From a phage: 64,000 bases of DNA. The translations under genes were made by a program, and so were the position numbers. The notes under the pieces were generated by a model. The model did no database searches. It was not told the origin of the DNA and saw only the letters and a program-made list of their open reading frames with translations. The stretch lies in the NCBI GenBank assembly GCA_038450185.1, contig GCA_038450185.1_4765.1, one strand, 5' to 3'. This document shows, one piece after another, positions 1 to 38,712 of this stretch; position 1 is the stretch's first letter; every line of letters starts with the position of its first letter.

Positions 1-83
1 GTTCCATCTTCCAGTAATGCAGTACCGATTTCGTTAATGCGGTCATAAGTTACGTCGGTAATGATGATTTCGATGTTAGCCAT
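1..83 (-). CDS. hypothetical protein, N-terminal part only (gene runs past window start)
   Basis: ATG at 83 on minus strand with AGGAG SD; begins MANIEIIITDV; lies downstream of promoter cassette 120-148. Confidence 0.4.
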   Translation of the reverse strand, partial: MANIEIIITDVTYDRINEIGTALLEDG

Positions 84-119
84 TTGATACTCCTTAGTAG
101 TTCGTTTCGGTATGTGTGC

Positions 120-148
120 ATTATAGGGGATCACCGATCCCCTGTCAA
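120..148 (-). promoter_or_regulatory. sigma70-type early promoter cassette (TTGACA-17-TATAAT), palindromic spacer
   Basis: Minus strand reads TTGACA GGGGATCGGTGATCCCC TATAAT; coordinates span the -10 to -35 hexamers. Confidence 0.6.
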
Positions 149-155
149 CAACTTT

Positions 156-674
156 TTAGTTATTTTTTAATTGTTCATCTTGCAATAATGCAATCACATG
201 CTGGCGATGTTCTTCCGATTGAGGTACACCGAAAAAGTTTGTTTTGTAGAAATACTCTAATCGGTCTTCTCGTGTGCTCTCTTCCATCATGATCGCGGGT
301 AGTCCGAGATTTCGGAAACGTCGCTTTTCTGCTGGCGTAAAATCACTGTAATACAACATAGAATCATCATTACAAGCAATGCTAAACTCATCCTTCATAA
401 AGGAGAATATTGCGTTTAAACGCTGTTTACCGTCCACGATTTCGATCTCATAGCGAGAGCCATCATCAATCTTAGCCATTGCGATAGCACCAACCGGAAA
501 ATCATTAATCAGGTTTTCGATAAACATACGTTTGTTTTCGGTGTCCCATACTAAAGGACGCTGATAATCTGGGTTCATGTTGATATAGCCATCTTCTAAC
601 CATGCTTCGTAAACAGAGATGACAAAGTTTTTAGTATTGGTATAGTAACGGCGTTTAGGCGTTAAACGGTTCAT
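156..674 (-). CDS. DUF262 / ParB-like (GmrS N-terminal type) domain protein
   Basis: ORF track 156..710 trimmed to ATG at 674 with AGGAG SD; motifs DYQRPLVWD, FIENLINDFPVGAI, IVDGKQRL. Confidence 0.5.
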   Translation of the reverse strand: MNRLTPKRRYYTNTKNFVISVYEAWLEDGYINMNPDYQRPLVWDTENKRMFIENLINDFPVGAIAMAKIDDGSRYEIEIVDGKQRLNAIFSFMKDEFSIACNDDSMLYYSDFTPAEKRRFRNLGLPAIMMEESTREDRLEYFYKTNFFGVPQSEEHRQHVIALLQDEQLKNN

Positions 675-675
675 G

Positions 676-1008
676 TTATAGTCTCCTGAATGGATCATCA
701 CGTAAATCAATATCTTTTAAGAACTCATCCCATGAATGGCGGATATTGTTCTTAATTCTCCAGATGAGCGCAGGGATTGAACGCTCTCCCATCTGGAAGT
801 ATGGATCATATGATCCGTATGCCCAATATGCTACTACAATTCCACAATCAGAGCAATAGTATTCTATTTCACTTGCTGGCGACCAAAGTCCATCAATATG
901 ATCGGTGATCTTGCTTTCGATGTTATGGCTATGGCAATCAGGGCAACGGATGCAATGACCTTGTTTGTCGTAATTTGACGTTAGAGAATACTTAAACAAT
1001 CTCATCAT
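676..1008 (-). CDS. small zinc-finger protein (CxxCPDCH ... CSDC)
   Basis: ORF track; ATG at 1008 with AAGGA SD; stop overlaps start of downstream DUF262 gene. Confidence 0.5.
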   Translation of the reverse strand: MMRLFKYSLTSNYDKQGHCIRCPDCHSHNIESKITDHIDGLWSPASEIEYYCSDCGIVVAYWAYGSYDPYFQMGERSIPALIWRIKNNIRHSWDEFLKDIDLRDDPFRRL

Positions 1009-1721
1009 AGATCCTTATTGGCTTCAAATACTGCCTTTGCGAATCCTCGCGGGGTAAGCGACCTGATAGTCTTTGTTCTGGTTCCTTTCCCGCCTAGCTT
1101 AGAATGCTGTTTACTGTACCCTTTATTAATCTGCAAAGGTTTCTTTTCTGGCATTATAAAGCCTTGTCCGGTCCATAAGCAAGTCTTTTTTGGGTACATA
1201 TCACGGGCGGCAATATACTCAGGAAACGTAGGATGCTTATCATCTTCCGGCAAATAACCGCCATATTCCCACGGATGGAACATATAATCAGGCTTACGCC
1301 ACATGCTAGAGATAACGCTTACAGGATTCTCTATCATGTAGGGAACTCCTAGCCATTCACCCAAATAAGCGGTTATTTTAGCTGCCCGTACATCATGAAC
1401 TTGAATCAATGGTCCTTGTCCTCGTTTCTTTCGTTCAAAGTGCGCAGCGCCACTAACAGCTAAATTGGTGCACGGTGGGAATGCAAAGATAATATCCGGT
1501 TTCCCCCATTCAAGGTCCATTGCTCTTTCCAGCCAATTCAAATCAATCCATGTGTTTACATAAGTAATGTTTGGATGTTCAAATCGGGTATTATACTTTT
1601 TGTATGTGCCGTGATCGCCATCGTCAGCATTAAAGCAGATCACCTTATGACCTTCTTTAGCCCATTCTAGCCCCATTATCCCCGATCCGTCAAAGTTGCA
1701 GAATATTAATTTTTGTTTCAT
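1005..1721 (-). CDS. putative compact DNA (cytosine-5)-methyltransferase-like protein
   Basis: ORF track; motif I-like FCNFDGSG, motif IV-like FAFPPCTNLAVSG (catalytic Cys), motif VI-like MIENPV; only about 238 aa, so target-recognition region is short. Confidence 0.4.
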   Translation of the reverse strand: MKQKLIFCNFDGSGIMGLEWAKEGHKVICFNADDGDHGTYKKYNTRFEHPNITYVNTWIDLNWLERAMDLEWGKPDIIFAFPPCTNLAVSGAAHFERKKRGQGPLIQVHDVRAAKITAYLGEWLGVPYMIENPVSVISSMWRKPDYMFHPWEYGGYLPEDDKHPTFPEYIAARDMYPKKTCLWTGQGFIMPEKKPLQINKGYSKQHSKLGGKGTRTKTIRSLTPRGFAKAVFEANKDL

Positions 1722-1963
1722 ATACGCCCCTTTAATCCAACACAGATTTTAGAAGGTTCTTTGCCGTGCCACATTAAGTAAAGTCCGTTAATGCGGCCTT
1801 GTTTTGTATATGATTCTTTTCTGATCTTCTTATAGTGTCGTGTTTCCTCAACTGATTGTTTAGAATACCAATCATAAAGGAAGAGGCACAAAGGCCAACC
1901 ATTAGCGGCCTTAATGCAGTTATTAAGAAATTCCTTATTGCGTTTAATTAATTTTCTTTTCAC
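1718..1963 (-). CDS. hypothetical basic protein
   Basis: ORF track; apparent GTG start at 1963 overlapping upstream stop (GTGA). Confidence 0.3.
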   Translation of the reverse strand: MKRKLIKRNKEFLNNCIKAANGWPLCLFLYDWYSKQSVEETRHYKKIRKESYTKQGRINGLYLMWHGKEPSKICVGLKGRI

Positions 1964-2211
1964 GCTGCCCCCATTGGTTTGATAGTAACAGAATCTAAAA
2001 GACCTTTGTTAGCCAGTTCGCGGCAAGTTTTCAGATCCGCAACTTCCCAGCCAGCCGCAATCAGGTTGTCAATGAGGCTGTTAGCAACTTCTTCGCTCAT
2101 GAAAGAGCACTGTTTGCCGATGGTGTAGCGTACACGCTGTAATTTCAGTTTACGGAAGCCTTTAACGTTCAGGTCTTTAGCGATTTTCTTTGCGGTTTCG
2201 ATGTTAGCCAT
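1960..2211 (-). CDS. hypothetical early protein
   Basis: ORF track; ATG at 2211, GGAGAATCAAA-type RBS, promoter cassette directly upstream. Confidence 0.5.
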   Translation of the reverse strand: MANIETAKKIAKDLNVKGFRKLKLQRVRYTIGKQCSFMSEEVANSLIDNLIAAGWEVADLKTCRELANKGLLDSVTIKPMGAA

Positions 2212-2251
2212 TGTTTGATTCTCCTAAGTGGTATCTCGTCTTGATGGTTGT

Positions 2252-2280
2252 ATTGTAGGGGAGTTATCCTCCCCTGTCAA
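2252..2280 (-). promoter_or_regulatory. early promoter cassette (TTGACA-17-TACAAT), palindromic spacer
   Basis: Spacer GGGGAGGATAACTCCCC on minus strand. Confidence 0.55.
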
Positions 2281-2294
2281 CACTTTTTATAAAA

Positions 2295-2462
2295 TTATTT
2301 GTTAATTTCTGGTGCGTTGCTCGGATAGTAACCTTCTTTAACACCCAGATATTTTGCAACCATCCCTACAATCTTCTGTGCTACTACAATGTCAAATTTC
2401 AGATAATCTTCGCCGTGGGTTTCAATGATATATGCTTCACATGCTGCTTTAGTCTCGAACAT
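2295..2462 (-). CDS. hypothetical small protein (paralogue of 6038..6205)
   Basis: ORF track 2295..2528 trimmed to ATG at 2462 (MFETKAACEAY); near-identical to 6038..6205. Confidence 0.5.
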   Translation of the reverse strand: MFETKAACEAYIIETHGEDYLKFDIVVAQKIVGMVAKYLGVKEGYYPSNAPEINK

Positions 2463-2495
2463 TTTGATTCTCCTATTTCGTTTCGTTATGTGTGT

Positions 2496-2525
2496 ATTAT
2501 AGGGGATCGGTGATCCCCTTGTCAA
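2496..2525 (-). promoter_or_regulatory. early promoter cassette (TTGACA-18-TATAAT), palindromic spacer
   Basis: Spacer contains GGGGATCACCGATCCCC. Confidence 0.55.
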
Positions 2526-2540
2526 CAACTTTTTTTAAAA

Positions 2541-2822
2541 TTATTCGTGATTAGTTTCGATGTTGTGCATTTTGCACCAGTTCAGCCAGTCGCCCAGATC
2601 TTGATAGTTGATGCTTTTATCTGCTGCCATCGTTTTTGTCTTGATACCCATATGTGCGTTATGAGTAAGCATTTTTACAGTGAACTCGATTTTATCGCCT
2701 TTAGCTTTAACATCAACCAGTTTGGTCCACTGGCTACCAGCGCCGCGAATGTTCATACCAACGATGTTTCCGATGTATGCTTCTTTGTTTTTCAGGATTT
2801 CGGTTGCTTTGATGAATTTCAT
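2541..2822 (-). CDS. hypothetical early protein
   Basis: ORF track; ATG at 2822 with GGAG RBS; promoter cassette upstream. Confidence 0.5.
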   Translation of the reverse strand: MKFIKATEILKNKEAYIGNIVGMNIRGAGSQWTKLVDVKAKGDKIEFTVKMLTHNAHMGIKTKTMAADKSINYQDLGDWLNWCKMHNIETNHE

Positions 2823-2855
2823 TTTTGGTTCTCCAGTTCGTTTCGGTATGGGTGT

Positions 2856-2884
2856 ATTATGCTATGTTCTTACTTTGGTGTCAA
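2856..2884 (-). promoter_or_regulatory. early promoter cassette (TTGACA-17-CATAAT)
   Basis: tgtcaa and attatg hexamers on plus strand at correct spacing upstream of gene starting 2822. Confidence 0.5.
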
Positions 2885-2892
2885 CAACTTTT

Positions 2893-3162
2893 TTAGATAT
2901 TTTCAGAAATAAATTTTAAAACTTGACGTAAATGTTTCTCATCTTTGATAGTCGCCGGAAGTTCTTCTTTTACTTCCTGTGCAAGATAGATATTTCCGTT
3001 CCAAGTGAAAGATCCGTCTTCGTTTACGCGATAGCTGAACATCCACTCGCAATCATTTTCGATTTCATATACACACAGAAGGGTGTAATCGTTAAAGCTA
3101 GTGATTTCAAGGTCGAAGCCGTGACGTTTTGCAAAGTTGGTAGTGGTTTTAGTCAGAGCCAT
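2893..3162 (-). CDS. hypothetical early protein
   Basis: ORF track; ATG at 3162; promoter cassette upstream. Confidence 0.5.
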   Translation of the reverse strand: MALTKTTTNFAKRHGFDLEITSFNDYTLLCVYEIENDCEWMFSYRVNEDGSFTWNGNIYLAQEVKEELPATIKDEKHLRQVLKFISENI

Positions 3163-3202
3163 TGTTTGATTCTCCTAAGTGGTATCTCGTTTCGATGTGT
3201 GT

Positions 3203-3231
3203 ATTATGCTATAGGCCGGATCTGGTGTCAA
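3203..3231 (-). promoter_or_regulatory. early promoter cassette (TTGACA-17-CATAAT)
   Basis: Same gtattatgctat...gtgtcaa module as 2856 and 3691. Confidence 0.5.
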
Positions 3232-3240
3232 TGCCTTTTT

Positions 3241-3266
3241 TAAAAAAGCCGACACTAAGGTCGGCA
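3241..3266 (-). terminator. intrinsic terminator
   Basis: GCCGAC-actaag-GTCGGC hairpin flanked by A-run (T-run on minus strand). Confidence 0.55.
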
Positions 3267-3270
3267 CATT

Positions 3271-3525
3271 TTAAAAATTCTTGCTATATATGCAAGCCTC
3301 ATAATCTAGAGGATGACCGCCAATCCTACCCGGCTTAATATTCCAACCGCATCGATATTTGCTGACCATGCTAACAGTTTCGGTTCTTAGAGCATTTCTT
3401 TGCAAATCATACCCCCTAAATTCTTGTCTATAAGGACAGTCCGCTTTGCAAGTTGGCGGTTCTACGTCATTTAGAGGGTCGGAAGCAGTTGGCTTTATTA
3501 TCAATTCTTTGTTTGCAATAATCAT
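3271..3525 (-). CDS. hypothetical protein (start uncertain)
   Basis: ORF track 3271..3588 starts on TTG; first in-frame ATG at 3525 overlaps 3467..3658 in another frame; a short 32-aa product from ATG 3369 is also possible. Confidence 0.25.
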   Translation of the reverse strand: MIIANKELIIKPTASDPLNDVEPPTCKADCPYRQEFRGYDLQRNALRTETVSMVSKYRCGWNIKPGRIGGHPLDYEACIYSKNF

Positions 3526-3658
3526 AAGCACATCCCATTGAAGACAATTTAACATCTTCGCAATAAGTGTTGAATCCGTCAAATACAATCACTTCGTATT
3601 TGACTCCATCAGCGATAGCTTTTACTTTATACCATCCATGCTTGTATAAAATCTTCAT
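3467..3658 (-). CDS. hypothetical small Cys-rich protein
   Basis: ORF track; ATG at 3658; promoter cassette upstream. Confidence 0.5.
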   Translation of the reverse strand: MKILYKHGWYKVKAIADGVKYEVIVFDGFNTYCEDVKLSSMGCAYDYCKQRIDNKANCFRPSK

Positions 3659-3690
3659 CTTTATTTCCTCAATCTCGTTTCGATGGGTGT

Positions 3691-3719
3691 ATTATGCTAT
3701 AGTCGTGATCTGGTGTCAA
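3691..3719 (-). promoter_or_regulatory. early promoter cassette (TTGACA-17-CATAAT)
   Basis: Hexamers at correct spacing upstream of gene starting 3658. Confidence 0.5.
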
Positions 3720-3743
3720 TGCCTTTTTTAAAATTTTATGCAA

Positions 3744-3768
3744 TAAAAAAGCCGACACTAAGGTCGGC
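3744..3768 (-). terminator. intrinsic terminator (second copy of the 3241 element)
   Basis: Same GCCGACACTAAGGTCGGC hairpin preceded by AAAAAA. Confidence 0.55.
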
Positions 3769-3776
3769 TAATGAAA

Positions 3777-4082
3777 TCATTTAGACAAATAATCATTCTG
3801 TGCAATCCGGTCAGCATGTTCCGGCGTTACGTCAATTGCAATCACTTTAACGCGCGCTTTCTTGACTGAATTTTCTCGTAGCCAGTGCGTGTGACCGTGC
3901 ACATTTTTATACTTTGATGCTTTTTCGAAAGTACGGATCGGACCTGGGTAATCAGCGTAAAGGATCTCTAGGTCTTCTGTGATGTAAAAATATACATCAT
4001 AATTACTGTTCTCTAGTTTAAGCAGAGACTTTCGGAACATTGGGAGATTTTCGCGGGTAAATTCAAAGATATTATCTTTCAT
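3777..4082 (-). CDS. hypothetical protein, HxHxHW family paralogue
   Basis: ORF track 3777..4229 trimmed to ATG 4082 with GAGGA SD; motifs YITEDLEILY, HGHTHW, VIAIDV. Confidence 0.5.
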   Translation of the reverse strand: MKDNIFEFTRENLPMFRKSLLKLENSNYDVYFYITEDLEILYADYPGPIRTFEKASKYKNVHGHTHWLRENSVKKARVKVIAIDVTPEHADRIAQNDYLSK

Positions 4083-4131
4083 AGTATTATCCTCAATAGT
4101 TGGATGAAAAGGGGGCTTAACGCCCCGTATA

Positions 4132-4419
4132 TTAAAACAGTCCTTCCTGTACACCGTAGTAGAGTTCATCGCTGATAATTTCATTAATGCGACGGTGTGC
4201 ATATTCCTGATTTGCGAAGTTGTCAGCAAGTTCTACTTTAGTTTCGCCGTCATGAGTCCATTTAGTGATAACTTTACCATCTGCAAATTTGAAGTTGAAC
4301 TCTTTAGCTACTGCATCGCGTACCAGACGTGCAAACTTATTGTTGCGGATTGCATTGTCGGTTTCGTGTGCAGCGTGAGCGAATTTGTTAACTTTCAGGG
4401 TGATAGTAATGTATGCCAT
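4132..4419 (-). CDS. hypothetical early protein
   Basis: ORF track; ATG at 4419; promoter cassette upstream. Confidence 0.5.
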   Translation of the reverse strand: MAYITITLKVNKFAHAAHETDNAIRNNKFARLVRDAVAKEFNFKFADGKVITKWTHDGETKVELADNFANQEYAHRRINEIISDELYYGVQEGLF

Positions 4420-4465
4420 AATTTGATTCTCCTAGTTAGAAAGTGTATCTCGTTTCGATGGGTGT

Positions 4466-4494
4466 ATTATGCTATACACCCAACCTCATGTCAA
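4466..4494 (-). promoter_or_regulatory. early promoter cassette (TTGACA-17-CATAAT)
   Basis: Hexamers at correct spacing upstream of gene starting 4419. Confidence 0.5.
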
Positions 4495-4500
4495 CACTTT

Positions 4501-4779
4501 TTATAAAATAATTTTTTGATATTTTTCTATGATGTTCGTGTAATTCACATCAACCGCTAGCACCGTTGCTTCGAATCCACCGTTTAGCCAATGGCTATGA
4601 TCGTGATCGTGAAAGAAACCTAGACCAGTACGAAGACCTTCTTTATATTCGGCGCGTACATTTAGATCATCATCGATAAACAGATAAAACCATGAATTTT
4701 TACTAGGATTGATGATACAACCTTTCAGATTCGGGAGAATATCACGACTAAGAATAAACTTATCACCTACTTTGAACAT
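4501..4779 (-). CDS. hypothetical protein, HxHxHW family paralogue
   Basis: ORF track 4501..4869 trimmed to ATG 4779 with GTGAGGA SD; motifs FIDDDLNV, HDHDHSHW, VLAVDV. Confidence 0.5.
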   Translation of the reverse strand: MFKVGDKFILSRDILPNLKGCIINPSKNSWFYLFIDDDLNVRAEYKEGLRTGLGFFHDHDHSHWLNGGFEATVLAVDVNYTNIIEKYQKIIL

Positions 4780-4793
4780 AATATTTTCCTCAC

Positions 4794-5102
4794 TTATAAA
4801 GTTTGACCGTTGTTTTTCGCGTAATGCTGAATGCGTGCTTGATCTGCTTCCGATGGTGATAGATTCCATGCAACCACTACAACTTCTGAAGCATCGTCAT
4901 CCGTTTCTGATACCCAATGATTGTGATTCATACAGTTATTTGCTATCGAGTGAGCAAATGATTTCATCACTGGAGACGTATAATCATAGTAACGGATTTT
5001 CAGATTTTCATCAACATACAAGTAGATCGTATACGGCTTATATTCAGTAACCAATAACAGACAGTTACGCAATTCTGGGAAAATCTTTTTAGTTAATTTC
5101 AT
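4794..5102 (-). CDS. hypothetical protein, HxHxHW family paralogue
   Basis: ORF track; motifs YVDENLKIRYYD, NHNHW, VVVAW. Confidence 0.5.
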   Translation of the reverse strand: MKLTKKIFPELRNCLLLVTEYKPYTIYLYVDENLKIRYYDYTSPVMKSFAHSIANNCMNHNHWVSETDDDASEVVVVAWNLSPSEADQARIQHYAKNNGQTL

Positions 5103-5304
5103 ATTCTAGTTCTCCGTAATACACGGTAATCCATTTTTCTTCATACTTTGTATCTTTCCAGCACACAATCCCGTTTACTGTGCAATCTTTGGAATTGACG
5201 AATGATTCATATTGTTCTGCATCTTCCATCATTTCATGAGCGGTCTTTTCATCGAATATATCGCAGATCGCTTTATATGCTCGATAATCTTTAAATTTGC
5301 TCAT
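5089..5304 (-). CDS. hypothetical small protein (tandem paralogue of 5307..5516)
   Basis: ORF track 5089..5316 trimmed to ATG 5304; shares MSKFKDY..AY N-terminus with neighbour. Confidence 0.4.
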   Translation of the reverse strand: MSKFKDYRAYKAICDIFDEKTAHEMMEDAEQYESFVNSKDCTVNGIVCWKDTKYEEKWITVYYGELEYEIN

Positions 5305-5306
5305 AA

Positions 5307-5516
5307 TTAACACCACTCAAGAGTTTTTGAAAACACATCTATCCATTGTTGAGTATATGCGGTTTCTTTCCATGACACAATACCAGTCGAATAATGGTTT
5401 TTGTTTCCAGAAAAGGACGGGCATTTTGATGCATCTTCCATCATCTTTTCGGCGAACTCTGGTGCGTATACTCGCAGGATCTGTTGATATGCTTTATAGT
5501 CTTTAAATTTGCTCAT
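5307..5516 (-). CDS. hypothetical small protein (tandem paralogue of 5089..5304)
   Basis: ORF track; ATG at 5516. Confidence 0.45.
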   Translation of the reverse strand: MSKFKDYKAYQQILRVYAPEFAEKMMEDASKCPSFSGNKNHYSTGIVSWKETAYTQQWIDVFSKTLEWC

Positions 5517-5781
5517 AATCGTTAACTACCTTATCAGCTTCTTTTATTGTTTTTACATCAACTGCGATAATCCGTAAAGGTTCGTCGAAGGTCCACCAAT
5601 GATCGTGAATATCAGCTTGTGATTTATCACCAAAGGAATCACGAATATCATTTTTACATTTATAGCTAATGTGACCGTCATAGTCAACATAAAGGTAATT
5701 ATCGAAAATCGGCGTTTTTAAGATCATACCGAAAAATCTTTCTTTGTGTGTCTTATCCAGTGTTGCAGTAATTCGCATCAT
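5503..5781 (-). CDS. hypothetical protein, HxHxHW family paralogue
   Basis: ORF track; ATG 5781 with AGAGGA SD; motifs YVDYDGHISY, HDHWW, IIAVDV. Confidence 0.5.
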   Translation of the reverse strand: MMRITATLDKTHKERFFGMILKTPIFDNYLYVDYDGHISYKCKNDIRDSFGDKSQADIHDHWWTFDEPLRIIAVDVKTIKEADKVVNDYEQI

Positions 5782-5793
5782 AATATATTCCTC

Positions 5794-5973
5794 TTAGAAA
5801 GGGATGGTCATTTCTTGAGCTTGTACATTCTCGTTAGGATTAAACTTCATCCAACCGATATTGTCTACCAGCATATGTACATTTTTATCATATCCTACGT
5901 GAGTAGTCAACACTAAATGTGCTTTACCTTCAACGATGATTTCCATGTACTTCTGAACTTCGATAGCTTTCAT
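5794..5973 (-). CDS. hypothetical 59-aa protein (below ORF-track size cutoff)
   Basis: Hand translation: ATG at 5973 after GGAGAATCAAA RBS, MKAIEVQKYMEIIVEG..., stop at 5794-5796; promoter cassette upstream. Confidence 0.4.
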   Translation of the reverse strand: MKAIEVQKYMEIIVEGKAHLVLTTHVGYDKNVHMLVDNIGWMKFNPNENVQAQEMTIPF

Positions 5974-6005
5974 TTTGATTCTCCGTTTGTTGTCTTGATG
6001 GGAGT

Positions 6006-6034
6006 ATATTACTACTCCCTTTAATCATTGTCAA
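6006..6034 (-). promoter_or_regulatory. early promoter cassette (TTGACA-17-TAATAT) with palindrome across -10
   Basis: GGGAGTATATTACTACTCCC palindrome overlaps the -10 box. Confidence 0.45.
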
Positions 6035-6037
6035 CTA

Positions 6038-6205
6038 TTATTTGTTAATTTCCGGTGCGTTGCTCGGATAGTAACCTTCTTTAACACCCAGATATTTCGC
6101 AACCATTCCGGTGATCTTCTGTGCTACTACGATATCGAATTTCAGGTAGTCTTCACCGTGGTTTGCTACAATGTATGCTTCGCATTCTGCTTTAGTCTGG
6201 AACAT
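6038..6205 (-). CDS. hypothetical small protein (paralogue of 2295..2462)
   Basis: ORF track 6038..6241 trimmed to ATG 6205 (MFQTKAECEAY). Confidence 0.5.
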   Translation of the reverse strand: MFQTKAECEAYIVANHGEDYLKFDIVVAQKITGMVAKYLGVKEGYYPSNAPEINK

Positions 6206-6239
6206 TTTTGATTCTCCTATATCTCGTTGGTATGTGTGC

Positions 6240-6268
6240 ATTATAGGGGATCACCGATCCCCTGTCAA
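6240..6268 (-). promoter_or_regulatory. early promoter cassette (TTGACA-17-TATAAT), palindromic spacer
   Basis: About 45 bp identical to the cassette at 111-155. Confidence 0.6.
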
Positions 6269-6276
6269 CAACTTTT

Positions 6277-6579
6277 TTATTCTTCGTCTTTATCTTTATA
6301 TGCGTATTTCATAAATTTGTCTGCTACTTCATCGGCATGTTCCGATTCTACGTCGGATTCGAGAACAATAGCAAGATCGGTTTCGTCGTTTCCGTCATAC
6401 CAATGATTATGAGTATCGTTTTCTTCGATATAGAATGAGTCATTTGGAGTTGGACGACAATATACATCTAAATTCTCATCGATGTAAAAGATCCAATCTT
6501 CGTAAAGAATAACCGTATTAGCCAGATTTTTATTGCCTTCAACGAAAGGTTCAGCTACAAATAGCTTAGTTTGTTCCAT
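6277..6579 (-). CDS. hypothetical protein, HxHxHW family paralogue
   Basis: ORF track 6277..6636 trimmed to ATG 6579 with GAGGAAAA SD; motifs YIDENLDVY, THNHW, LAIVLESDV. Confidence 0.5.
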   Translation of the reverse strand: MEQTKLFVAEPFVEGNKNLANTVILYEDWIFYIDENLDVYCRPTPNDSFYIEENDTHNHWYDGNDETDLAIVLESDVESEHADEVADKFMKYAYKDKDEE

Positions 6580-6595
6580 AATATTTTCCTCAAAA

Positions 6596-6787
6596 TTATA
6601 CAGCTTCGTAAACTTCCCAATGTTCAGCGCCAGCACGCTTAACGAAAAGGTTTTCTTTGATGTTATTCATAAACGTCTGGATGGATTTAATGCGGTTGGA
6701 AGGTTTCCAGTCTTCGTTAGCATTTCGGCGATACATTATAACATTACCAGATCGCTTATATTCAGCAACCATTTTAAGACCACACAT
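6596..6787 (-). CDS. hypothetical small protein
   Basis: ORF track; ATG at 6787 with GAGGA SD. Confidence 0.45.
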   Translation of the reverse strand: MCGLKMVAEYKRSGNVIMYRRNANEDWKPSNRIKSIQTFMNNIKENLFVKRAGAEHWEVYEAV

Positions 6788-6843
6788 AATATTATCCTCA
6801 ATTTGTGGGAGAGTATTACCCTCCAGATTATTGTTATACTACA

Positions 6844-7146
6844 TTACGCAAAATGGCGTGTCAATGCTTCTTTTGCTGTTCCGCTAAGATTCTCGATCTC
6901 TCCTGGCATAACATCAACCGCCAGAACTTCTACAACATCCTCTGATCCTAACCAGTGAGTATGACCTTTGTAGAACTTGATATCCCATTTATCGCTATCG
7001 CTAGCCCACCACACATCACCGTCGATAAAGTTGATGTAAAGCACACTACGACACATTGAATTAATTACTTTCAATACTGCGCCTTTCATATCTTCCACGG
7101 TATGGTCTTCCATTTTGAAGACCTCACCTACCTGAACTTTTGCCAT
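6844..7146 (-). CDS. hypothetical protein, HxHxHW family paralogue
   Basis: ORF track; motifs FIDGDVWW, KGHTHW, VLAVDV. Confidence 0.5.
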   Translation of the reverse strand: MAKVQVGEVFKMEDHTVEDMKGAVLKVINSMCRSVLYINFIDGDVWWASDSDKWDIKFYKGHTHWLGSEDVVEVLAVDVMPGEIENLSGTAKEALTRHFA

Positions 7147-7163
7147 TTAGTCACCTCTCTTTA

Positions 7164-7343
7164 TTACATAACAATCACGCCAGCCGTTGAAAGTTGATGT
7201 TTCAACTGAGCATTTTCTGCTACTGTCAAATCAATGATTTCTTGTGACGCTGCAATCATATAGCCATTGGTGATATTGTTTTTCATCAGTTCAATGGTTT
7301 CTTCGTTGTAGCGGATTTTAGCGATGATTTCGTTGAAGTTCAT
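7164..7343 (-). CDS. hypothetical small protein
   Basis: ORF track 7164..7445 trimmed to ATG 7343 (MNFNEIIAKI) with GGAGAATCAA RBS; promoter cassette upstream. Confidence 0.45.
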   Translation of the reverse strand: MNFNEIIAKIRYNEETIELMKNNITNGYMIAASQEIIDLTVAENAQLKHQLSTAGVIVM

Positions 7344-7377
7344 AATTGATTCTCCTAGTTCGTTTCGGTATGTGTGT

Positions 7378-7406
7378 AGTATAGGGGATCGGTGATCCCC
7401 TGTCAA
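7378..7406 (-). promoter_or_regulatory. early promoter cassette (TTGACA-17-TATACT), palindromic spacer
   Basis: Spacer GGGGATCACCGATCCCC on minus strand. Confidence 0.55.
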
Positions 7407-7419
7407 CAACTTTTTTGAA

Positions 7420-7896
7420 TTATTTTTCTTTATGCTCGCGCTCATACTTTTCGAAATAAAATTCTACTGGCTGGTCGTGGATTGACAGTAAGCCAAAGCG
7501 TTTAGCCGCTCGCAATCCCATATTGCGCTGAATGTACTTCTGGAAGTTCTCGCGTATACACTTACGCCAGTATTCTAAGCCCATACAGCTTTTATAAAGA
7601 TTGCATTGCACACATGCCGGATTCATGTTATCAAGTATATCATGCTCCGGTTTATGCATTCCTACAACCTTATACTTCCACGATCCATCATCATTACGGG
7701 CAATTCGTCCATTTTCATCATAGACTACCTTTGAGCGTCGCAATACTGGTTTGATGTGGTCTGCGTGCCAGCGATCCCCTAGTTCCTCGCCACAATAGGC
7801 ACAACGTCCACCATATTTCATTTTCAGGATCTGGCGTTGCTCTTTCTTTGACAATTTTTTAGGTTTAGGGGCTTTCGCCCCTTCATTATCACACAT
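7420..7896 (-). CDS. HNH endonuclease domain protein
   Basis: ORF track; CAYCGEEL...HADHIKP...CVQCNLYKS zinc-binding HNH signature; overlaps ligase gene by a few nt. Confidence 0.55.
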   Translation of the reverse strand: MCDNEGAKAPKPKKLSKKEQRQILKMKYGGRCAYCGEELGDRWHADHIKPVLRRSKVVYDENGRIARNDDGSWKYKVVGMHKPEHDILDNMNPACVQCNLYKSCMGLEYWRKCIRENFQKYIQRNMGLRAAKRFGLLSIHDQPVEFYFEKYEREHKEK

Positions 7897-9382
7897 CGAA
7901 TACCTCTTTTACTGTATTTGCAGTGGTCTTGTCGTAGCGAATACGTTTGATGATCGGGAGAAATAAAGAGAACTCCGGTTCATCTTCTTTACGTGATTTG
8001 CTGCGGATATACCCGTTGCATGTCATCTCAATGACTTTTCCAATCAGGTTATGACGGTCAGCCCATAACATTTCTCGGTCAAGTTCATTTCTACGATCGA
8101 ACGGAATCACACGTTCAATACCATCATCTTTTTCGGTTGTAGTGTCGGTCAATCCCGATCCGGTGTTGGTCATCATTCGTCCGCACGCACTACGGACAGT
8201 AAAACCGCCTACCTTATTAGGATCTTTACTATGCGGATATACATCAACAATTTCCGCGTCGAAGTCAATCACTTCTTTAAATTTAACCTGATCTTTACTG
8301 CGACGATCTTCAAATACACCATGCAGATTTTTAAGGATAATACCTTCTAATCCCATGTTTACATATCGATGATATACTTCGCGAGCTTCATCGATATTGT
8401 TAACTACAGTATTTTCGATTATCTGCACACGAGGATCGTTAAGTTCTTCAACAATCTGTTTTAGTTCTTCGAATCGATCTTTATATTGCTTCGTTGCTTT
8501 CTCGTTTCCGTAATACACATCACGGTTGATAACATCCCAGACAGTGTAAACAATACATTGGGCTTCTTCTTTTGGAATAGTTCCTTTCAGTGATTTGTTG
8601 AGGATACCATTTCCGGTCTGACGATCTGCAACAACGGATTCTTTTACTGCTTCCGCTACTGGCGTTAATGGCATTTCCTCTTCTTCAAATATCCATGACA
8701 GAGTACCATCATAAACGCTTTCAACGAAGTTCTGCGCTGGTGTTTGCGAAAGGGTAGGCATATATACCAATTCGCCATCTAGAACAATTCCACGGCCTCG
8801 TAGACGCTCTAAAACAGCAAACAAATCATCCAGCCCCTGATAGGTATTACCTGAACGGGTATATATTGCTAGTGTTTCCCCGTCAATATCAGCCATACCA
8901 CGAGCGCCATCACTTTTAAGTTGTGCATATGCCGGATATTTGATATTAGCAATAGCCTTATCAGAATATGACGATGCAAGGTGGCATGGTTGCTGTGGGA
9001 TCAGTTTCTTCCATACCTTGTTTGCAGTGGTAGCGGAACAACCGCATTCCAGATCACGATTCAGGACCATCATTGCAACTTTAGCATCATCTTCTGACAA
9101 GCAAGTCAGAGTATCGGTAACTAGTTGTAATGCAGCATTACCAGTTACTTGACGCGTGGCAAGTTTATTTTTAAAGACCTGTAATGCACCGGATAAAGAC
9201 AATACAGACGAATAACGCGATGGTTTATCGTATTTCTTTACGCCAAACGTAACCTGTTTGCAATATGCCAGATAAAAGCATTCTTTCAGCGTTTCATTGC
9301 TTGCAGATTCTTTCAGGATCTTTTCTTTCAGCGATGTTTTGTCTGTCGCTGCAAGCTGATTAATGATATTAAGAATTGACAT
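7889..9382 (-). CDS. 30: ATP-dependent DNA ligase (T4 gp30-like)
   Basis: ORF track 7889..9388, ATG at 9382 with GAGGTG SD; strong similarity to my recollection of T4 ligase (DLECG, AYAQLKSDGAR, GNGILNKSLKG, GLEGIILKN). Confidence 0.9.
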   Translation of the reverse strand: MSILNIINQLAATDKTSLKEKILKESASNETLKECFYLAYCKQVTFGVKKYDKPSRYSSVLSLSGALQVFKNKLATRQVTGNAALQLVTDTLTCLSEDDAKVAMMVLNRDLECGCSATTANKVWKKLIPQQPCHLASSYSDKAIANIKYPAYAQLKSDGARGMADIDGETLAIYTRSGNTYQGLDDLFAVLERLRGRGIVLDGELVYMPTLSQTPAQNFVESVYDGTLSWIFEEEEMPLTPVAEAVKESVVADRQTGNGILNKSLKGTIPKEEAQCIVYTVWDVINRDVYYGNEKATKQYKDRFEELKQIVEELNDPRVQIIENTVVNNIDEAREVYHRYVNMGLEGIILKNLHGVFEDRRSKDQVKFKEVIDFDAEIVDVYPHSKDPNKVGGFTVRSACGRMMTNTGSGLTDTTTEKDDGIERVIPFDRRNELDREMLWADRHNLIGKVIEMTCNGYIRSKSRKEDEPEFSLFLPIIKRIRYDKTTANTVKEVFDV

Positions 9383-9848
9383 TTTCACCTCGTTTTGTTA
9401 AACGTTCACGAATATCATTGAGGATACTACAAAATTCCGATTCGGTCAATATGGTCTTTAACGGATCAGTTCCACCTATACTATGACGTAATTTCTTATT
9501 TCCTGTAGCAAGTAATGCTTTACAAAATTCTGGGTTATTCCGTGCCATCGTAACAAATGCCAGATGTACCAGTCTGTAATAATGCTCACTCATTCGATGA
9601 ATCTGGCGACCCTGAAAATATAACATGTGATTCTCAATCTTTTCAGTTCTTCCGGTTCTTTTTGCTTTGCCACCGTGCATCAAAAAGATTTCTCTTTGTC
9701 TCTGAGGGTTCTTAAATCTTAGCCCCTGTAAAAATCCTTCTGTGCTGTTAATATCGCAACCAAATAGACGGAATGGTCTTTTATTGAAATTACTCAATTC
9801 ACCCGATGGATAAGGTCCACCCGCATAGATATCAATTTCAGAAGTCAT
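9369..9848 (-). CDS. putative NADAR / YbiA-like (DUF1768) protein
   Basis: ORF track; by-eye resemblance to YbiA-type pattern (ELSNFNKRPF, SEHYY, ALLATGNKKL, ILNDIRERL); not verified by search. Confidence 0.35.
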   Translation of the reverse strand: MTSEIDIYAGGPYPSGELSNFNKRPFRLFGCDINSTEGFLQGLRFKNPQRQREIFLMHGGKAKRTGRTEKIENHMLYFQGRQIHRMSEHYYRLVHLAFVTMARNNPEFCKALLATGNKKLRHSIGGTDPLKTILTESEFCSILNDIRERLTKRGENVNS

Positions 9849-10002
9849 TGAAACTAATCTCGCTAATCAGAGAGAACGGATCATAATCGTCATTAGGAAT
9901 ATCGATAGTAATCGAATGAGGATTTACCCATACACCAAACTGGTCTTCTTCGGTGAATACTTCGGTATGGATTTCGTGGATGTTTACATTCATAGTTTTC
10001 AT
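9838..10002 (-). CDS. hypothetical 54-aa protein (below ORF-track size cutoff)
   Basis: Hand translation: ATG 10002 with AAGGA SD, MKTMNVNIHEIHTEV..., stop 9838-9840. Confidence 0.3.
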   Translation of the reverse strand: MKTMNVNIHEIHTEVFTEEDQFGVWVNPHSITIDIPNDDYDPFSLISEISFNDF

Positions 10003-27595: not shown

Positions 27596-28543
27596 TTAGA
27601 ACTCACCAATTTTCTGCAACATTTTAACTAACGCATTTGTTACAAAATAGTTATAAATCTTACCGCGTGGTGCTGGTTTAGATTTCTCCCATGACTCCAG
27701 GATCTGATTCTGGATATTGTCTGGGATCTCGTCAAAGTCAATCAACTGACGGTTTTCATCAAAGCGTCGTGCTTCTTCCTCTGTCATCAAAGACTTTGGA
27801 TCTTCGGCATCGAAAATTTGCTCTAACCATTTGGTTGCAATTGGTTTAGCTCGTTCTCCTTCCAGTCGTGAGATAATGAAATCACTACGGCACTTGATCG
27901 AAGCTACACCGTCTTTTGCGTCACCCTTAACACATTTTACCATAAGGTCTTTGTAAGGGCTACCATATTTGCATTTCTTCCATGCTTTCTGTACTGGCGC
28001 CCACTGTTTCACGTTTTTGTATTTGTGCAACTGTGTGTAGTCACCATCGCCGGAGTTGATTAGCACCTGGCGACCTTCTACAGAAAACTTTTTAGTTAAC
28101 ACAGCGATTATATCATCCGCTTCAACTTTGTCAACCTTAATAACGTGATAAGGCATGTTCTCTTTAAACTCTTCGGTGATCTTATTGATCGCAGCAAAGA
28201 TCATCTCCCAATCACGCGGATCTGCGTCTCGTTTTTCCTTACGGTTGCGTTTATAGTAAGGGGCGATATCACGTCGCCAGTAACCTTTGCTTGAATCAAA
28301 GGCAAGTACCGTAATTGGGTATTGCTCTTTGAATTTTGTCATATTATAACGCATGGTGTCAAGAATAAGATGACGGATCATGCCTTCACTAATAGGGTCT
28401 TCCGGTTTAAAGGTATGCGAGATAGTAGCAATCATAAGCTGCGACATATCAATCAAATGCACACCTTCCGGCAGTTTATCTTCTGGATCATCGAAGAAAT
28501 CATTAAGTGTAGCGGTAGTTTTTGTAAACGGGTTATACGTCAT
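27596..28543 (-). CDS. rnh: RNase H / 5'-3' exonuclease
   Basis: ORF track; similarity to recalled T4 RNase H (GYWRRDIAPYYKRNR, INSGDGDYTQLHKY, PPRGKIYNYF). Confidence 0.85.
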   Translation of the reverse strand: MTYNPFTKTTATLNDFFDDPEDKLPEGVHLIDMSQLMIATISHTFKPEDPISEGMIRHLILDTMRYNMTKFKEQYPITVLAFDSSKGYWRRDIAPYYKRNRKEKRDADPRDWEMIFAAINKITEEFKENMPYHVIKVDKVEADDIIAVLTKKFSVEGRQVLINSGDGDYTQLHKYKNVKQWAPVQKAWKKCKYGSPYKDLMVKCVKGDAKDGVASIKCRSDFIISRLEGERAKPIATKWLEQIFDAEDPKSLMTEEEARRFDENRQLIDFDEIPDNIQNQILESWEKSKPAPRGKIYNYFVTNALVKMLQKIGEF

Positions 28544-28545
28544 AA

Positions 28546-28731
28546 TTAAGTTCTCTCCACTCTCACAACAACATATTCGCCAAACGAGTTAGATACTTCA
28601 CGATCATACCCGTATTTCTCCATAACTCGCAGAATTGCATTGTTTAATTCGGCACGGAAATAATTATAATCCTTATCAGGGATTCTGTCAACTACCCATT
28701 TTGCACCTTCTGACAAATCAACTTTAACCAT
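28546..28731 (-). CDS. hypothetical small protein
   Basis: ORF track; ATG 28731 with AAGAGGA SD. Confidence 0.45.
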   Translation of the reverse strand: MVKVDLSEGAKWVVDRIPDKDYNYFRAELNNAILRVMEKYGYDREVSNSFGEYVVVRVERT

Positions 28732-28769
28732 AATATATCATCCTCTTTTGTTTCTATCAAGCCTCATTT

Positions 28770-28777
28770 TATAAATA
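28770..28777 (+). promoter_or_regulatory. T4-type late promoter box TATAAATA upstream of gene 34
   Basis: TATAAATA about 28 nt before the ATG at 28806, followed by AAGGAG RBS. Confidence 0.65.
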
Positions 28778-28805
28778 TGAACATACTATAAAAGGAGACC
28801 CAATA

Positions 28806-31800
28806 ATGGCAGATTTTTCTCAACATTTCAAGGCCACATTTGGCTTTGACGCTGGTAATGAAAAGGTCGTCAATGTAGCATTGGCTGATAAGAATGTCAA
28901 CACCGATGCGGTCAACGTTGAATTTTTCAATTACCATAATGGTATTACTCAGTATGACACAACTCGCGGTTATGATCAATACGGAACTACAATCTATCAA
29001 AACCGTCCGTATTATGCAAAAGAAGATATCACAAAACCAGCAGGTGACTTTGACCCGACTAAATGGCAAGCACTGCGCACGGACCCACGTTGGGATTATG
29101 TTGCAGCAACTTCCGGCGATACTCCTTTAAAGTCCGGTGATTATATCGCAGCGGACTGTCAGTTTGCAAACTTGACATTCTCAATGCCTACTAATCCGGC
29201 AGAGGGCGACACTATAACAGTAAAAGATATCGGTGGCAAGTGCGGTGTTAATGAGTTATCGTTCCTTGCGGCTGGTCATGAGTTCTATCATAACGGTGTG
29301 GTAAACAACCGCAAATGGTATTGTACTACCCCTTATGCAATGAACTACTTCATTTTTGCTCGCAATCGCTGGCACGTTTACCAGACGGGAACAGAGCCGC
29401 GCGGGGTATATGCACAACCATCTATCGACCCGATTCAGATGCAAAACGGTGATCAGGTATTCCGCCGTAGTTCTTTGGGTAACATTGTTTTGATGCTTCC
29501 TAAGTTTGCTAATAACGGTGATATAATCCAGACTACCGATCTTGACGGATTGACTGCAACCAACCATGTTACGGTAAAAGTGCATGAAGGTGCGCAAGAA
29601 CAATCGATCGGTACTTTCGGGGTAAAAGAAATTGTTGGTAAGCGTAGCGGTCATGGTGTATTCATATTTGACAAACCGGAAAACTTATGGCGTTTGTGGG
29701 ATGGTGATCAGTCTGTTCGCTTGAATCCTATCATTAGTGATACTCGCTTATCCCCCAATAGCTATGTTGCAGTATTTGGTGATCGTGATGTTACCTTGAC
29801 TTTACCGACCAATGTCGAGCCGGGTGATCGTATTCAAGTTTCTATGCAGTATATGCACGGAAACCAGACTTGCCGAATCATTACCTCAGAAGAGGATACA
29901 AAAATCCTTATGCAGAAAAACATGGTTCAGTTTCCTAAGCGTAGCGAGTACCCATTCAATGGGGCCGATACATGGACGGGAGTGTCTGAATTGTCTTTCA
30001 ACGCTGCAAATGATTATGTACCTTATCTGGAGTTCTCTTATTCAGAAGGTGATGATGGTAAGAAATACTGGTTGGTGGCACATGCTCACCCGATTGTAGA
30101 ACGAGTAGATCCGACTCGTAAAGATCGTGTTGGTGTAATTGCACTGGCTACCCAGGATGAAACAAACAAAAACCATGAAGATAATCCTAGCGACGAAGTT
30201 GCGGTGACTCCAAAGGTTCTGGCTAATAAAACAGCCAACGAAACTCGACGCGGTATTGCTCGCATTGCAACTCAAGCGGAAACTCATCAAGATACTGGTT
30301 CCAGCTTCCTGGATGATGTTATCGTTACACCTAAAAAGTTAAATGACTGTGTTGCTACCGAAGCCCGTCGTGGTGTGATGGAAATTGCAACTCAACATGA
30401 AACCAACGAAGGTTTAGACGATACCCGCGCAATCACTCCTAAGAAGTTAGAAGAGCGTCGAGCGTCAGAGGATCTTGCTGGTATCGCTGAAATTGTTCAG
30501 GTAGGCGGTAATGCTGCCGCTCTAAGGGGTGAAGCTGGTACAGGGATCTATAACATCAATGACCATGCTAAAATTGTTACACCGCAAAACATCAACGAAG
30601 TTAAGGCGACCGAAACTTCCCGTGGTGTTGGGTATCTGGCGACGGATGAGGAAGTTCAAGGGGCTACTGAATCAACCCCGCAAGATGCATTGCTGATCAC
30701 TACTCGCACGTTAACCAAGCGCACTGCTACCGAATCCCGTACTGGTATCGCTGAAATTGCAACTCAAGAAGAAACAAACTTAGGCCAAAGTGATGACCAT
30801 ATCATCACACCTAAAAAACTGCATACTCGCCGCGCAACGGAAACTTTACATGGTTTAGCAGAAATTGCAACTCAAGAAGAGTTTGACGCAGGTCTTGACG
30901 ATGCTCGCATTTCTACCCCATTGAAGATTAAAACCTTCTTTGAGAATGCACAGCGTTTGAAAGTAGACCCGACTCAGGGGCTTAACCTTACTGGTGATTT
31001 GTGGCAAGGTATCATGATCAGCGGTCTGGACGCAACCGAAGACACAAAAGGTGTCGCTAAAGTTGCTACTACTCAGCTTACGGATGCTGGTCAAGATGAT
31101 ACTACAATCATCACGCCTAAAAAGCTGCAAGGCAAAAAAGCCACCGAAGGTAAAGAAGGTATTATCCGCGTTGGTACTCAAGCCGAAACCGTGGCTGGTA
31201 CACTGGCTAATGTAGCAATTTCTCCGAAGAACTTCAAATATGTTGTTCAGACAGAGGATACATGGAAAGCAACCGAAGCGCGTCGTGGATTCTTGAAAGT
31301 TGCTACTCAGGAAAACTGTTTTGTTGGTGATAATCTGCAAGGTTCTACTCAAGAACTAGGAAACTACCAGCATGACGGAATTGCTGTTACCCCGAAAGGA
31401 TTAAACTACGCACTTGCTAATTTCTTACCTAAGATGGCAACTGCTCAGAATAGTTTGAAATTGGGTAACGTAGAGGCCGCTAAATGGGCGCGTAGAGACA
31501 TTGACCAGACCATAGAGAGCAATTACACGTTTAATAAAAACGTTAACGTGAAGGGCGATTTAGAGTGCTTAAAATCAGGTTCCTTTGAAACTCTATCTGT
31601 GACTAAGAACTCGACCGATGTTCCGAGTAATGGTCATCTGGTGTTGGGTGAGCGTGGAGTTGACGGTCACACCGGAATTACTCTGCATGGCACAACCGCA
31701 TCGGAAGGCATGAAAAACTCTTGGTCTATTATCGTTGGTGGCACTGGAACAGCGCAAGTTGTTGATAGTGATGCTATCGCTTTCGGTAAAATCAATGATG

Positions 31801-32546: not shown

Positions 32547-32551
32547 TTAAA

Positions 32552-32567
32552 GGGGGCGAAAGCCCCC
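32552..32567 (+). other. GGGGGCGAAAGCCCCC hairpin (GAAA tetraloop) between genes 34 and 35
   Basis: Perfect 6-bp GC stem with GAAA loop, no U-run; same element occurs at 20467-20482 and 7867-7882 on the minus strand. Confidence 0.45.
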
Positions 32568-32579
32568 TATGGGGTTATT

Positions 32580-33719: not shown

Positions 33720-33730
33720 CATTTTTAACA

Positions 33731-33760
33731 AGCCGATCCTCGTGGTCGGCTTTATTTTTA
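33731..33760 (+). terminator. intrinsic terminator after gene 35
   Basis: Hairpin AGCCGATC...GGTCGGCT followed by TTTATTTTTA. Confidence 0.55.
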
Positions 33761-33879
33761 TACAGTTGGTTAAATTGTAACCAAAACGAAGAAAGATCTT
33801 TAGAATAATAAAAATTTGTTTCGGTTAAAAAGTAGTCAGTGCCTACGGCACGTCGCGAAGCGATATTTTGTTAACATTC

Positions 33880-33887
33880 TATAAATA
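33880..33887 (+). promoter_or_regulatory. T4-type late promoter box TATAAATA upstream of gene 36
   Basis: TATAAATA 33 nt before ATG 33921. Confidence 0.65.
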
Positions 33888-33920
33888 CTCGGAACTATAA
33901 CTAATTTTTGAGGTTACTTT

Positions 33921-35411: not shown

Positions 35412-35416
35412 TTTTA

Positions 35417-35440
35417 GCGGGGAGATAATCCCCGCTTTTC
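35417..35440 (+). terminator. hairpin plus T-run between genes 36 and 37
   Basis: GCGGGGA-gataa-TCCCCGC followed by TTTTC. Confidence 0.4.
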
Positions 35441-35481
35441 TAAATAATATTATTCTAATAACCGTTTAAGGATTTTATAAA

Positions 35482-38397: not shown

Positions 38398-38439
38398 GGA
38401 AAAATCCCAGGGAAGGGAAACTATTAAGGAGAAACGGCT

Positions 38440-38679
38440 ATGGTCTATAATATCGTCATTGGTGCTTTGTCTAGTTTCGGAATGAAACTATTATCAAAGT
38501 TAATTAGTGAAAAGATGCTCACTAAAATTTTCTTCTATTGCGCTCGTCGTCTTGCGGCTTATACCAATACGCCAATTGATGATCGTTTTGTGGAAGAACT
38601 TTATAAGGAGTTTAATAAAGATCAGTCAGAAGATAGTAACGAGCAAGATAAACCTAGTGATAGTCAACTACCTAAATAA
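38440..38679 (+). CDS. hypothetical small protein between 37 and holin
   Basis: ORF track; ATG 38440 with AAGGAG SD; occupies the slot where T4 has gp38. Confidence 0.5.
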   Translation: MVYNIVIGALSSFGMKLLSKLISEKMLTKIFFYCARRLAAYTNTPIDDRFVEELYKEFNKDQSEDSNEQDKPSDSQLPK

Positions 38680-38712
38680 GAATACACTGTCATAGTTATC
38701 TTAGGGCATTAT

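Follow-up and report, generated by a model that had tools for sequence, protein, structure and literature searches.

The phage DNA analyzed here, a stretch of 64,000 nucleotides (NCBI GenBank assembly GCA_038450185.1, contig GCA_038450185.1_4765.1) that is referred to as the window, carries between positions 3,777 and 7,146 six short open reading frames (ORFs), here named P1 to P6, which share a histidine-tryptophan motif. All six are encoded by the minus strand and belong to the hyperplastic region that lies downstream of the DNA ligase gene gp30 and an HNH endonuclease gene, and each starts with ATG behind its own GAGG-type ribosome-binding site and is free of internal stop codons. An earlier sequence-only reading had described them as a tandem array of diverged paralogues, and its coordinates and the six His clusters quoted in it proved to be exact (Table 1). 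Judged by nucleotide identity, the window belongs to a Krischvirus genome, i.e. an RB49-like T4-type coliphage; positions 3000-8000 are 92-96% identical to 59 phage records, all of them Krischvirus and including JK32, RB49, phi1, JSE and ECD7, with identities of ~95% to JK32 and others.

The pairwise identity among the six proteins is only about 25-31%. When profiles were built from five members and searched against all ORFs of the window, the omitted sixth was recovered each time (E-values of 1e-13, 2e-7, 3e-13, 1e-5, 7e-7 and 2e-6), whereas the best unrelated ORF had an E-value of at least 0.07. The motif H.HW was found 6 times among the 634 six-frame ORFs of the window (53,581 amino acids, aa) compared to 0.57 expected occurrences, and it is confined to the six family ORFs, where it is placed at equivalent positions. 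Each protein matches one of five PHROG families (9345, 17255, 15972, 15965 and 16486, all annotated as 'unknown function') with E-values of 1e-45 to 1e-64, and cross-hits link the members. Since five-member profiles recover the sixth protein and the PHROG families are connected by cross-hits, the comparisons identify the six ORFs as real diverged paralogues of one orphan protein family, as had been proposed, with exactly six members in the window. The opposite view, that the motifs are chance matches between unrelated short ORFs, could refer to the low identities and to pairwise BLAST results, which are weak for some pairs (P1-P3 3e-12, P3-P4 4.9) and in part exceed an E-value of 0.01. It is refuted by the profile E-values, the motif count, the same predicted fold in two members and the Foldseek matches to other subfamilies in BFVD, and we assign it practically no probability.

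In the alignment of the six proteins, H64, H66 and W67 (P1 numbering) are invariant, while among 27 sequences including orthologues only H66 and W67 are invariant and Y33 and H64 are conserved in at least 90%. An L-Y-(I/V)-D strand, the H-W dipeptide and a (V/I)-L-A-x-(D/N)-V strand follow each other in the same order and spacing. The (V/I)AVDV motif of the sequence-only reading holds insofar as a related strand, better written as (V/I)(L/I/V)AxDV, is present in all members, but the exact AVDV is restricted to three of the six and the others read IAIDV, VAWNL and LESDV. A conserved Cys does not exist anywhere in the family. AlphaFold2 models of P1 (predicted local distance difference test, pLDDT, 80; predicted template modelling score, pTM, 0.76; low confidence only at residues 59-62, just before the motif) and of P2 (pLDDT 87, pTM 0.82, the better model) suggest soluble alpha/beta domains of ~95 residues with the topology b1-a1-b2-b3-b4, a long loop, a short helix (HSHWL), b5 and a C-terminal helix, with conserved acidic residues at the ends of b3 and b5. 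The proteins are hydrophilic, have no hydrophobic segments and differ in net charge from -20 (P5) to +1 (P1).

Scans of the six proteins against Pfam, NCBIfam and PADLOC, and of the 27 family members against Pfam, gave only scattered and inconsistent sub-threshold matches; no enzyme matched the six proteins, nothing was obtained below E = 0.01 with the PADLOC anti-phage defence profiles, and a PDB sequence search with the family profile returned His-tag or Strep-tag artefacts only. Two groups of weak structural neighbours were found recurrently, namely papain-like sheets (Cif, deubiquitinases (DUBs), C39 peptidases) and small inhibitor or immunity proteins (the Tas1 immunity protein, AcrIIA7, Tad2). 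According to the models the fold has no confident solved relative and appears unreported.

The family is narrowly distributed. A profile search among 5.8 billion clustered proteins yielded 86 matches, all of them orthologues (at least 72% identity) of one of the six, on contigs of ~165 kb or fragments. An exhaustive HMMER scan of 1.84 billion representatives (E <= 1e-3) gave 21 matches, which derive from Krischvirus or a few short metagenome contigs and include no annotated relative, and tblastn with two distant members against 50,697 phage records matched Krischvirus only. The distant members, situated on short metagenome contigs, represent P6-, P5-, P4- and P3-like orthologues from uncultured relatives with 35-47% identity. 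One contig of 2.1 kb (L003) encodes five family domains; its P6-, P4- and P3-like genes (37-46% identity) keep the order of the window, and amid them lies P0087 (L003:823-1434), a natural tandem fusion of two family domains with 203 aa, which hints that members might act as dimers. As the individual paralogues and the array order can be traced into these relatives, the duplications predate the split between them and Krischvirus. On contig L007 (300-1100), repeats resembling the small ORFs e202 and f201, which lie between P4 and P3 in the window, are fused in frame to a P3-like domain in a protein of 266 aa, and on contig L006 a homologue of the same type (phrog_8471) is found immediately upstream of a P3/P1-like gene. 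It might be possible that these arrangements reflect a functional link, or an assembly or frameshift artefact.

A more remote branch was reached by structure. Apart from the family's own Krischvirus members, Foldseek retrieved from BFVD only the JSE protein C4MZ33 (probability 0.97), which appears to be identical with JSE_00215 (both 88 aa). Profile-profile comparison connects the JSE_00215 family with the main family (93% probability, E 2.8e-7), and the remote branch keeps the Y-I-D and L-L-A-x-D-V strands, with G-N-G-H-L-I in the place of H-x-H-W, so that within the whole superfamily the second His (H66) alone is invariant. The same branch occurs as a hypothetical protein of 97 aa in many Salmonella enterica chromosomes (L014-L016:6001-6294), where it is encoded among unannotated small ORFs that form an islet next to ycdX and a gene for a 2-hydroxyacid dehydrogenase; a Phage_pRha gene is found close by. 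A third profile search with the widened alignment added only Salmonella hypothetical proteins, and P0102, a member of the remote branch, has no PHROG match.

The family had been regarded as fast-evolving, which is at variance with the comparison of eight Krischvirus loci. Each of them (8/8) contains six members in the same order, and the ratio of non-synonymous to synonymous substitutions (dN/dS) between the window and other Krischvirus genomes amounts to 0.14 for P6, 0.19 for P5, 0.16 for P4, 0.10 for P2 and 0.22 for P1, similar to the neighbouring small ORFs. For P3 it is ~0.04-0.24 without JSE; a value of 2.7 was rejected as an artefact, because the tblastn pick in JSE was a different, saturated paralogue in the P2 slot (dS = -1). 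From the synteny, the dN/dS values of ~0.10-0.22 and the orthologues in distant relatives, the family is best described as old, maintained and under purifying selection. Within the orthogroups the strands and the His-Trp motif are constant, and the variable positions comprise residues 2-6, the loop from b4 to the His-Trp motif, 4-6 residues after the motif and the C-terminal tail. P5 and P1 exist as mosaic alleles with a dS of 0.13-0.76 in most comparisons versus a background of ~0.1, and the alleles in the P3 and P2 slots of JSE are only 35-50% identical. The suggestion that the genes are accessory is supported by damaged copies, and the genes lie in the known hyperplastic region of RB49-like phages (PMC2839356). 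In the JSE record the P5 and P1 copies are frameshifted, split or truncated (L011 3707-4001 and 6054-6361), with a disrupted N-terminus in the P5 copy, and P1 is truncated in phage kvi. Either these copies are true pseudogenes or the older records contain sequencing errors; taken as they are, the copies imply that single copies are dispensable.

In the direction of transcription, the genes are arranged in the order a209-P6-b207-P5-c205-d204-P4-e202-f201-P3-P2-g198-P1 (Table 1). Hence, the array is not strictly tandem as the sequence-only reading had it: seven small ORFs unrelated to the H-x-H-W family are scattered among the members, and P3 and P2 form the only neighbouring pair. These seven are also mutually unrelated except for e202 and f201, a second paralogue pair (MSKFKDY...) with 46% identity. 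A duplicated two-gene module consisting of a family member and its upstream partner was considered and rejected, because the upstream ORFs are mutually unrelated with the same exception. In related genomes the run of small ORFs downstream of gp30 and the HNH gene ends at a DNA methyltransferase gene and alt.

Table 1. Coordinates of the family genes, neighbouring ORFs and regulatory elements; positions refer to the window unless a contig is given
Feature	Position	Strand	Description
DNA ligase gp30	7889-9388	minus	upstream side of array
HNH endonuclease gene	7420-7896	minus	between gp30 and small-ORF run
PeSL	7346-7433	minus	TTGACA-17-TATACT at 7406-7378, 11/12; GGGGATC/GATCCCC stem between hexamers; starts a209 to P6
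a209	7164-7343	minus	59 aa, unrelated ORF directly upstream of P6; phrog_14803, unknown function
P6	6844-7146	minus	100 aa; KGHTHW; VLAVDV; orthologue RB49p208; phrog_16486
sigma-70-like promoter	6864-6836	minus	10/12; overlaps P6 3' end; would drive b207 to P5
b207	6596-6787	minus	63 aa, unrelated ORF directly upstream of P5
P5	6277-6579	minus	100 aa; THNHW; net charge -20; orthologue RB49p206; phrog_15965
PeSL	6208-6295	minus	TTGACA-17-TATAAT at 6268-6240, 12/12; GC stem-loop
c205	6038-6205	minus	unrelated small ORF
weaker promoter-like site	6034-6006	minus	within c205/d204 region
d204	5794-5973	minus	unrelated small ORF, precedes P4
P4	5503-5781	minus	92 aa; HDHWW; IIAVDV; orthologue RB49p203; phrog_15972
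e202	5307-5516	minus	between P4 and P3; phrog_8471; paralogue of f201
f201	5089-5304	minus	between P4 and P3; phrog_8471; paralogue of e202
P3	4794-5102	minus	102 aa; NHNHW; VVAWNL; orthologue RB49p200; phrog_9345
P2	4501-4779	minus	92 aa; HDHDHSHW; VLAVDV; orthologue RB49p199; phrog_17255
PeSL	4447-4508	minus	TTGACA-17-CATAAT at 4494-4466, 11/12; stem overlaps -10 hexamer; starts g198 to P1
g198	4132-4419	minus	95 aa; GC hairpin 4112-4126 after g198, upstream of P1
P1	3777-4082	minus	101 aa; HGHTHW; VIAIDV; orthologue RB49p197; phrog_9345
intrinsic terminator	3750-3769	minus	directly after P1
PeSL	3672-3733	minus	promoter at 3719-3691, 11/12; downstream boundary of array
JSE_00215	L011:2854-3120		between a209 and P6 in JSE; absent from window
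G2248_00210	L012:2693-2959		same-sized ORF (267 nt), equivalent position in phage G2248

The regulatory elements of this region have been described by Arbiol et al. 2010 (PMC2839356) as PeSL cassettes, each consisting of a sigma-70 consensus early promoter and a GC stem-loop, which flank orphan ORFs in the hyperplastic region of RB49-like phages and mediate their shuffling. The PeSL after P5 is the counterpart of the RB49/phi1 PeSL206/205, for which a very strong promoter activity of ~13,000 Miller units has been reported (PMC2839356). It had been supposed that several family members stand behind their own promoter cassette, but in no case is a PeSL the element immediately upstream of a member. 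Another small ORF precedes five of the members at a distance of 12-49 nucleotides (nt), except that f201 overlaps P3 by 14 nt, and P2 comes immediately after P3. At the other end, the stop codons of P5 and P2 adjoin the following PeSL, and a terminator comes after P1; three members are thus the last genes of a unit. The PeSLs, with their near-perfect TTGACA-N17-TATAAT sequence and stem-loop upstream of the unit, therefore bound multi-gene units and not single members, and the six genes are spread over three or four such units. Because of this placement behind sigma-70-type promoters, an early transcription of all six genes is a reasonable inference.

Several further observations concern the surroundings of the array. 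The ligase gene and the HNH endonuclease gene share 8 nt at the 3' end of the former. In RB49 and JSE, the HNH gene and a209 are separated by additional ORFs (210/211) that the window does not contain. Farther downstream, at 156-710 and 1005-1721, a cytosine-type DNA methyltransferase and a protein of 184 aa are encoded; the sequence of the latter looks DUF262/ParB-like. The proteins of g198 (4132-4419) and k193 (2541-2822) are 99.6-100% identical in eight genomes (100% for g198), at a dS of ~0.1 and a dN/dS of 0.00-0.02; this constraint is far stronger than that on their neighbours, and both are probably important early proteins. A direct repeat of 172 nt with 87% identity (2294-2465 and 6037-6208) contains two minus-strand ORFs (2295-2462 and 6038-6205) for proteins of 55 aa, which are 89% identical, belong to phrog_8009 and are each encoded immediately downstream of a PeSL. 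The repeat has the appearance of a cassette of PeSL plus ORF that was duplicated recently, by the mechanism that Arbiol et al. proposed. Moreover, the PeSLs at 3184-3265 and 3672-3768 are 94% identical and each is followed by an exactly identical terminator segment of 25 nt (TAAAAAAGCCGACACTAAGGTCGGC); this whole regulatory module, duplicated ~500 nt apart, is likely a substrate for the mini-circle excision described for RB49. At ~28000-40000 the GC and AT skews switch sign along with a plus-strand coding block, presumably the late genes transcribed in the opposite direction, and become negative again after ~40 kb. No Rfam RNA family was detected in positions 1-10000 of the window.

Regarding the function, we tentatively prefer the view that the six are early proteins which bind or modulate host targets stoichiometrically, acting in host takeover or counter-defence, with different targets for the different paralogues. 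They would bind host macromolecules or ligands and would not be enzymes; the invariant His-Trp at the base of the variable loop would form the common core of the binding site or stabilise it, and the tandem and three-domain fusions in relatives suggest that members may act as dimers or in concert with the products of adjacent genes. This view is consistent with a constant scaffold and His-Trp motif combined with variation in charge, at the N-terminus and on either side of the motif (the preceding loop and the following 4-6 residues), and with the lack of any enzyme, Pfam, NCBIfam or PADLOC match. Of the hundreds of small early 'ORFans' in large virulent phages only a minority have a known role, and many of the characterised ones are host-takeover or anti-defence factors. 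Several points speak against the binder view, however. A published account of these genes was not found in the literature on RB49/Krischvirus, PeSL elements, anti-defence or transcriptomes. Loops vary more than strands in any protein, hence the pattern of variability is not specific, the invariant His beside conserved Asp residues would also suit catalysis or metal binding, and the early timing is deduced from the promoter type. A metal site had been suggested in the sequence-only reading; in this case, the members would be small metal-binding proteins or a minimal metalloenzyme, in which H-x-H together with the Asp of Y-I-D and A-x-D-V coordinates Zn, Ni or Fe, and substrate or metal would vary among the six copies. 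The H-x-H-W in all six window copies, the extended HDHDHSH run in P2, the acidic residues at the ends of b3 and b5 and an H66 that is retained even in the remote branch fit this assumption. However, such a site would need at least three invariant ligands including both His, and only one invariant His is left. The first His is evidently replaceable: it is Ser in the P5 allele of RB49, ECD7, ELT3, Makalu003, JSE and SAP (R-T-S-N-H-W in 6 of the 8 genomes compared), it is missing in P0088, and the JSE_00215/Salmonella branch has Gly/Asn. There is also no conserved Cys, the P2 model places the motif in a short helix where the side chains i and i+2 point in different directions, and neither fold nor sequence matched cupins, metallo-beta-lactamases, amidohydrolases or zinc fingers, the PDB matches being tag artefacts. 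The original suggestion is weakened by these findings; a metal site is not favoured, and we regard this explanation as unlikely.

Still less probable in our opinion are KOW/SH3-like proteins that bind nucleic acid or the ribosome/RNA polymerase and adjust transcription or translation of the host or the phage. A resemblance to a KOW motif does exist at the N-termini of P2 and P6 (VGDxFx...LKGxII), and the P2 orthologue P0048 bears the source label 'KOW2-KOW3 domains of Spt5', but P1, P3, P4 and P5 have no VGD...KG motif and none of the 27 members matches Pfam KOW (PF00467) at E <= 1. Furthermore, a barrel was not found by the fold search, both models show a helix between b1 and b2, unlike KOW, and most members are acidic, with -20 in P5, which is unsuited to RNA or DNA binding. 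Alternatively, the ORFs could be functionless filler that was multiplied by PeSL-mediated recombination and kept by hitch-hiking, the motif being a remnant of common descent. The locus is indeed a hyperplastic, recombination-prone part of the genome (PMC2839356), and the damaged P1 copies in JSE and kvi and the P5 copy of JSE suggest that single genes can be dispensed with in the laboratory. Nevertheless, this idea appears highly improbable in view of the low dN/dS of every member, the preservation of six intact copies and of their order in 7 of 8 genomes, the motifs retained by the distant orthologues and the absence of PeSLs on both sides of any member, unlike the mobile ORFan192 and ORFan210 cassettes. 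The binder view can also be extended to a bolder version, which we consider rather doubtful: the six proteins (seven in JSE and G2248) would then form a battery of specialised inhibitors for anti-defence or host takeover that share a small, hitherto undescribed fold, each paralogue neutralising a different immune system or signalling molecule of E. coli, with the His-Trp as a 'knuckle' presenting the hypervariable loop and the remote branch exported to prophage-like islets of Salmonella.

The closest known counterparts are the ORFans of the hyperplastic regions of RB49 and phi1 (PMC2839356; Comeau et al. 2014, PMC4122927), which belong to the same genome type and the same gene 30-alt locus. 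They are alike in the sigma-70 consensus promoters with G(n)-loop-C(n) stems and as small, non-essential genes without database homologues. However, these studies treated the ORFs as unrelated orphans and did not mention paralogy, whereas the six members found here are paralogous. ORFan192 and ORFan210 are individually flanked by PeSLs, as the cassettes of Arbiol et al. 2010 are, but the six members are not, and in contrast to PeSL-shuffled ORFans their array shows stability and synteny throughout the eight genomes examined. PHROGs keeps five separate families, which the profile tests unite with the JSE_00215/Salmonella branch in one superfamily. The Tas1 immunity protein (6ox6_B) and the DUF2829 proteins AcrIIA7 (8kbi_A) and Tad2 (9eib_A) have a similar size (76-104 aa) and likewise a small antiparallel sheet plus helices, and the role of an early phage-encoded binder or sponge would suit them. 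Their conserved residues do not correspond to those of the family and none of the 27 members matches DUF2829 in Pfam, so that the similarity is a lead and not membership. Papain-like proteins (Cif, viral tegument-like DUBs, C39 peptidases) rely on a Cys and a His; the family has no conserved Cys nucleophile and its domain is less than half their size. Databases already list the sequences as hypothetical proteins, and publications exist on the region and on its promoter cassettes. Two results appear to be unreported, namely the union of five PHROGs and one uncatalogued branch in one superfamily and the existence of the array as a stable, ancient block inside the 'hyperplastic' region. We classify the proteins as a lineage-specific multi-copy family of small early phage accessory proteins.

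Furthermore, the family offers a compact target set for experiments, which comprises six genes of ~300 bp, natural allelic variants, fusions and frameshift mutants. If the members do bind components of host immunity, they would represent a new inhibitor fold; if not, they would be one more orphan family. In any case, the picture of the hyperplastic region is corrected, because it does not consist entirely of freely shuffled cassettes but includes an array block that is stable across the genus.

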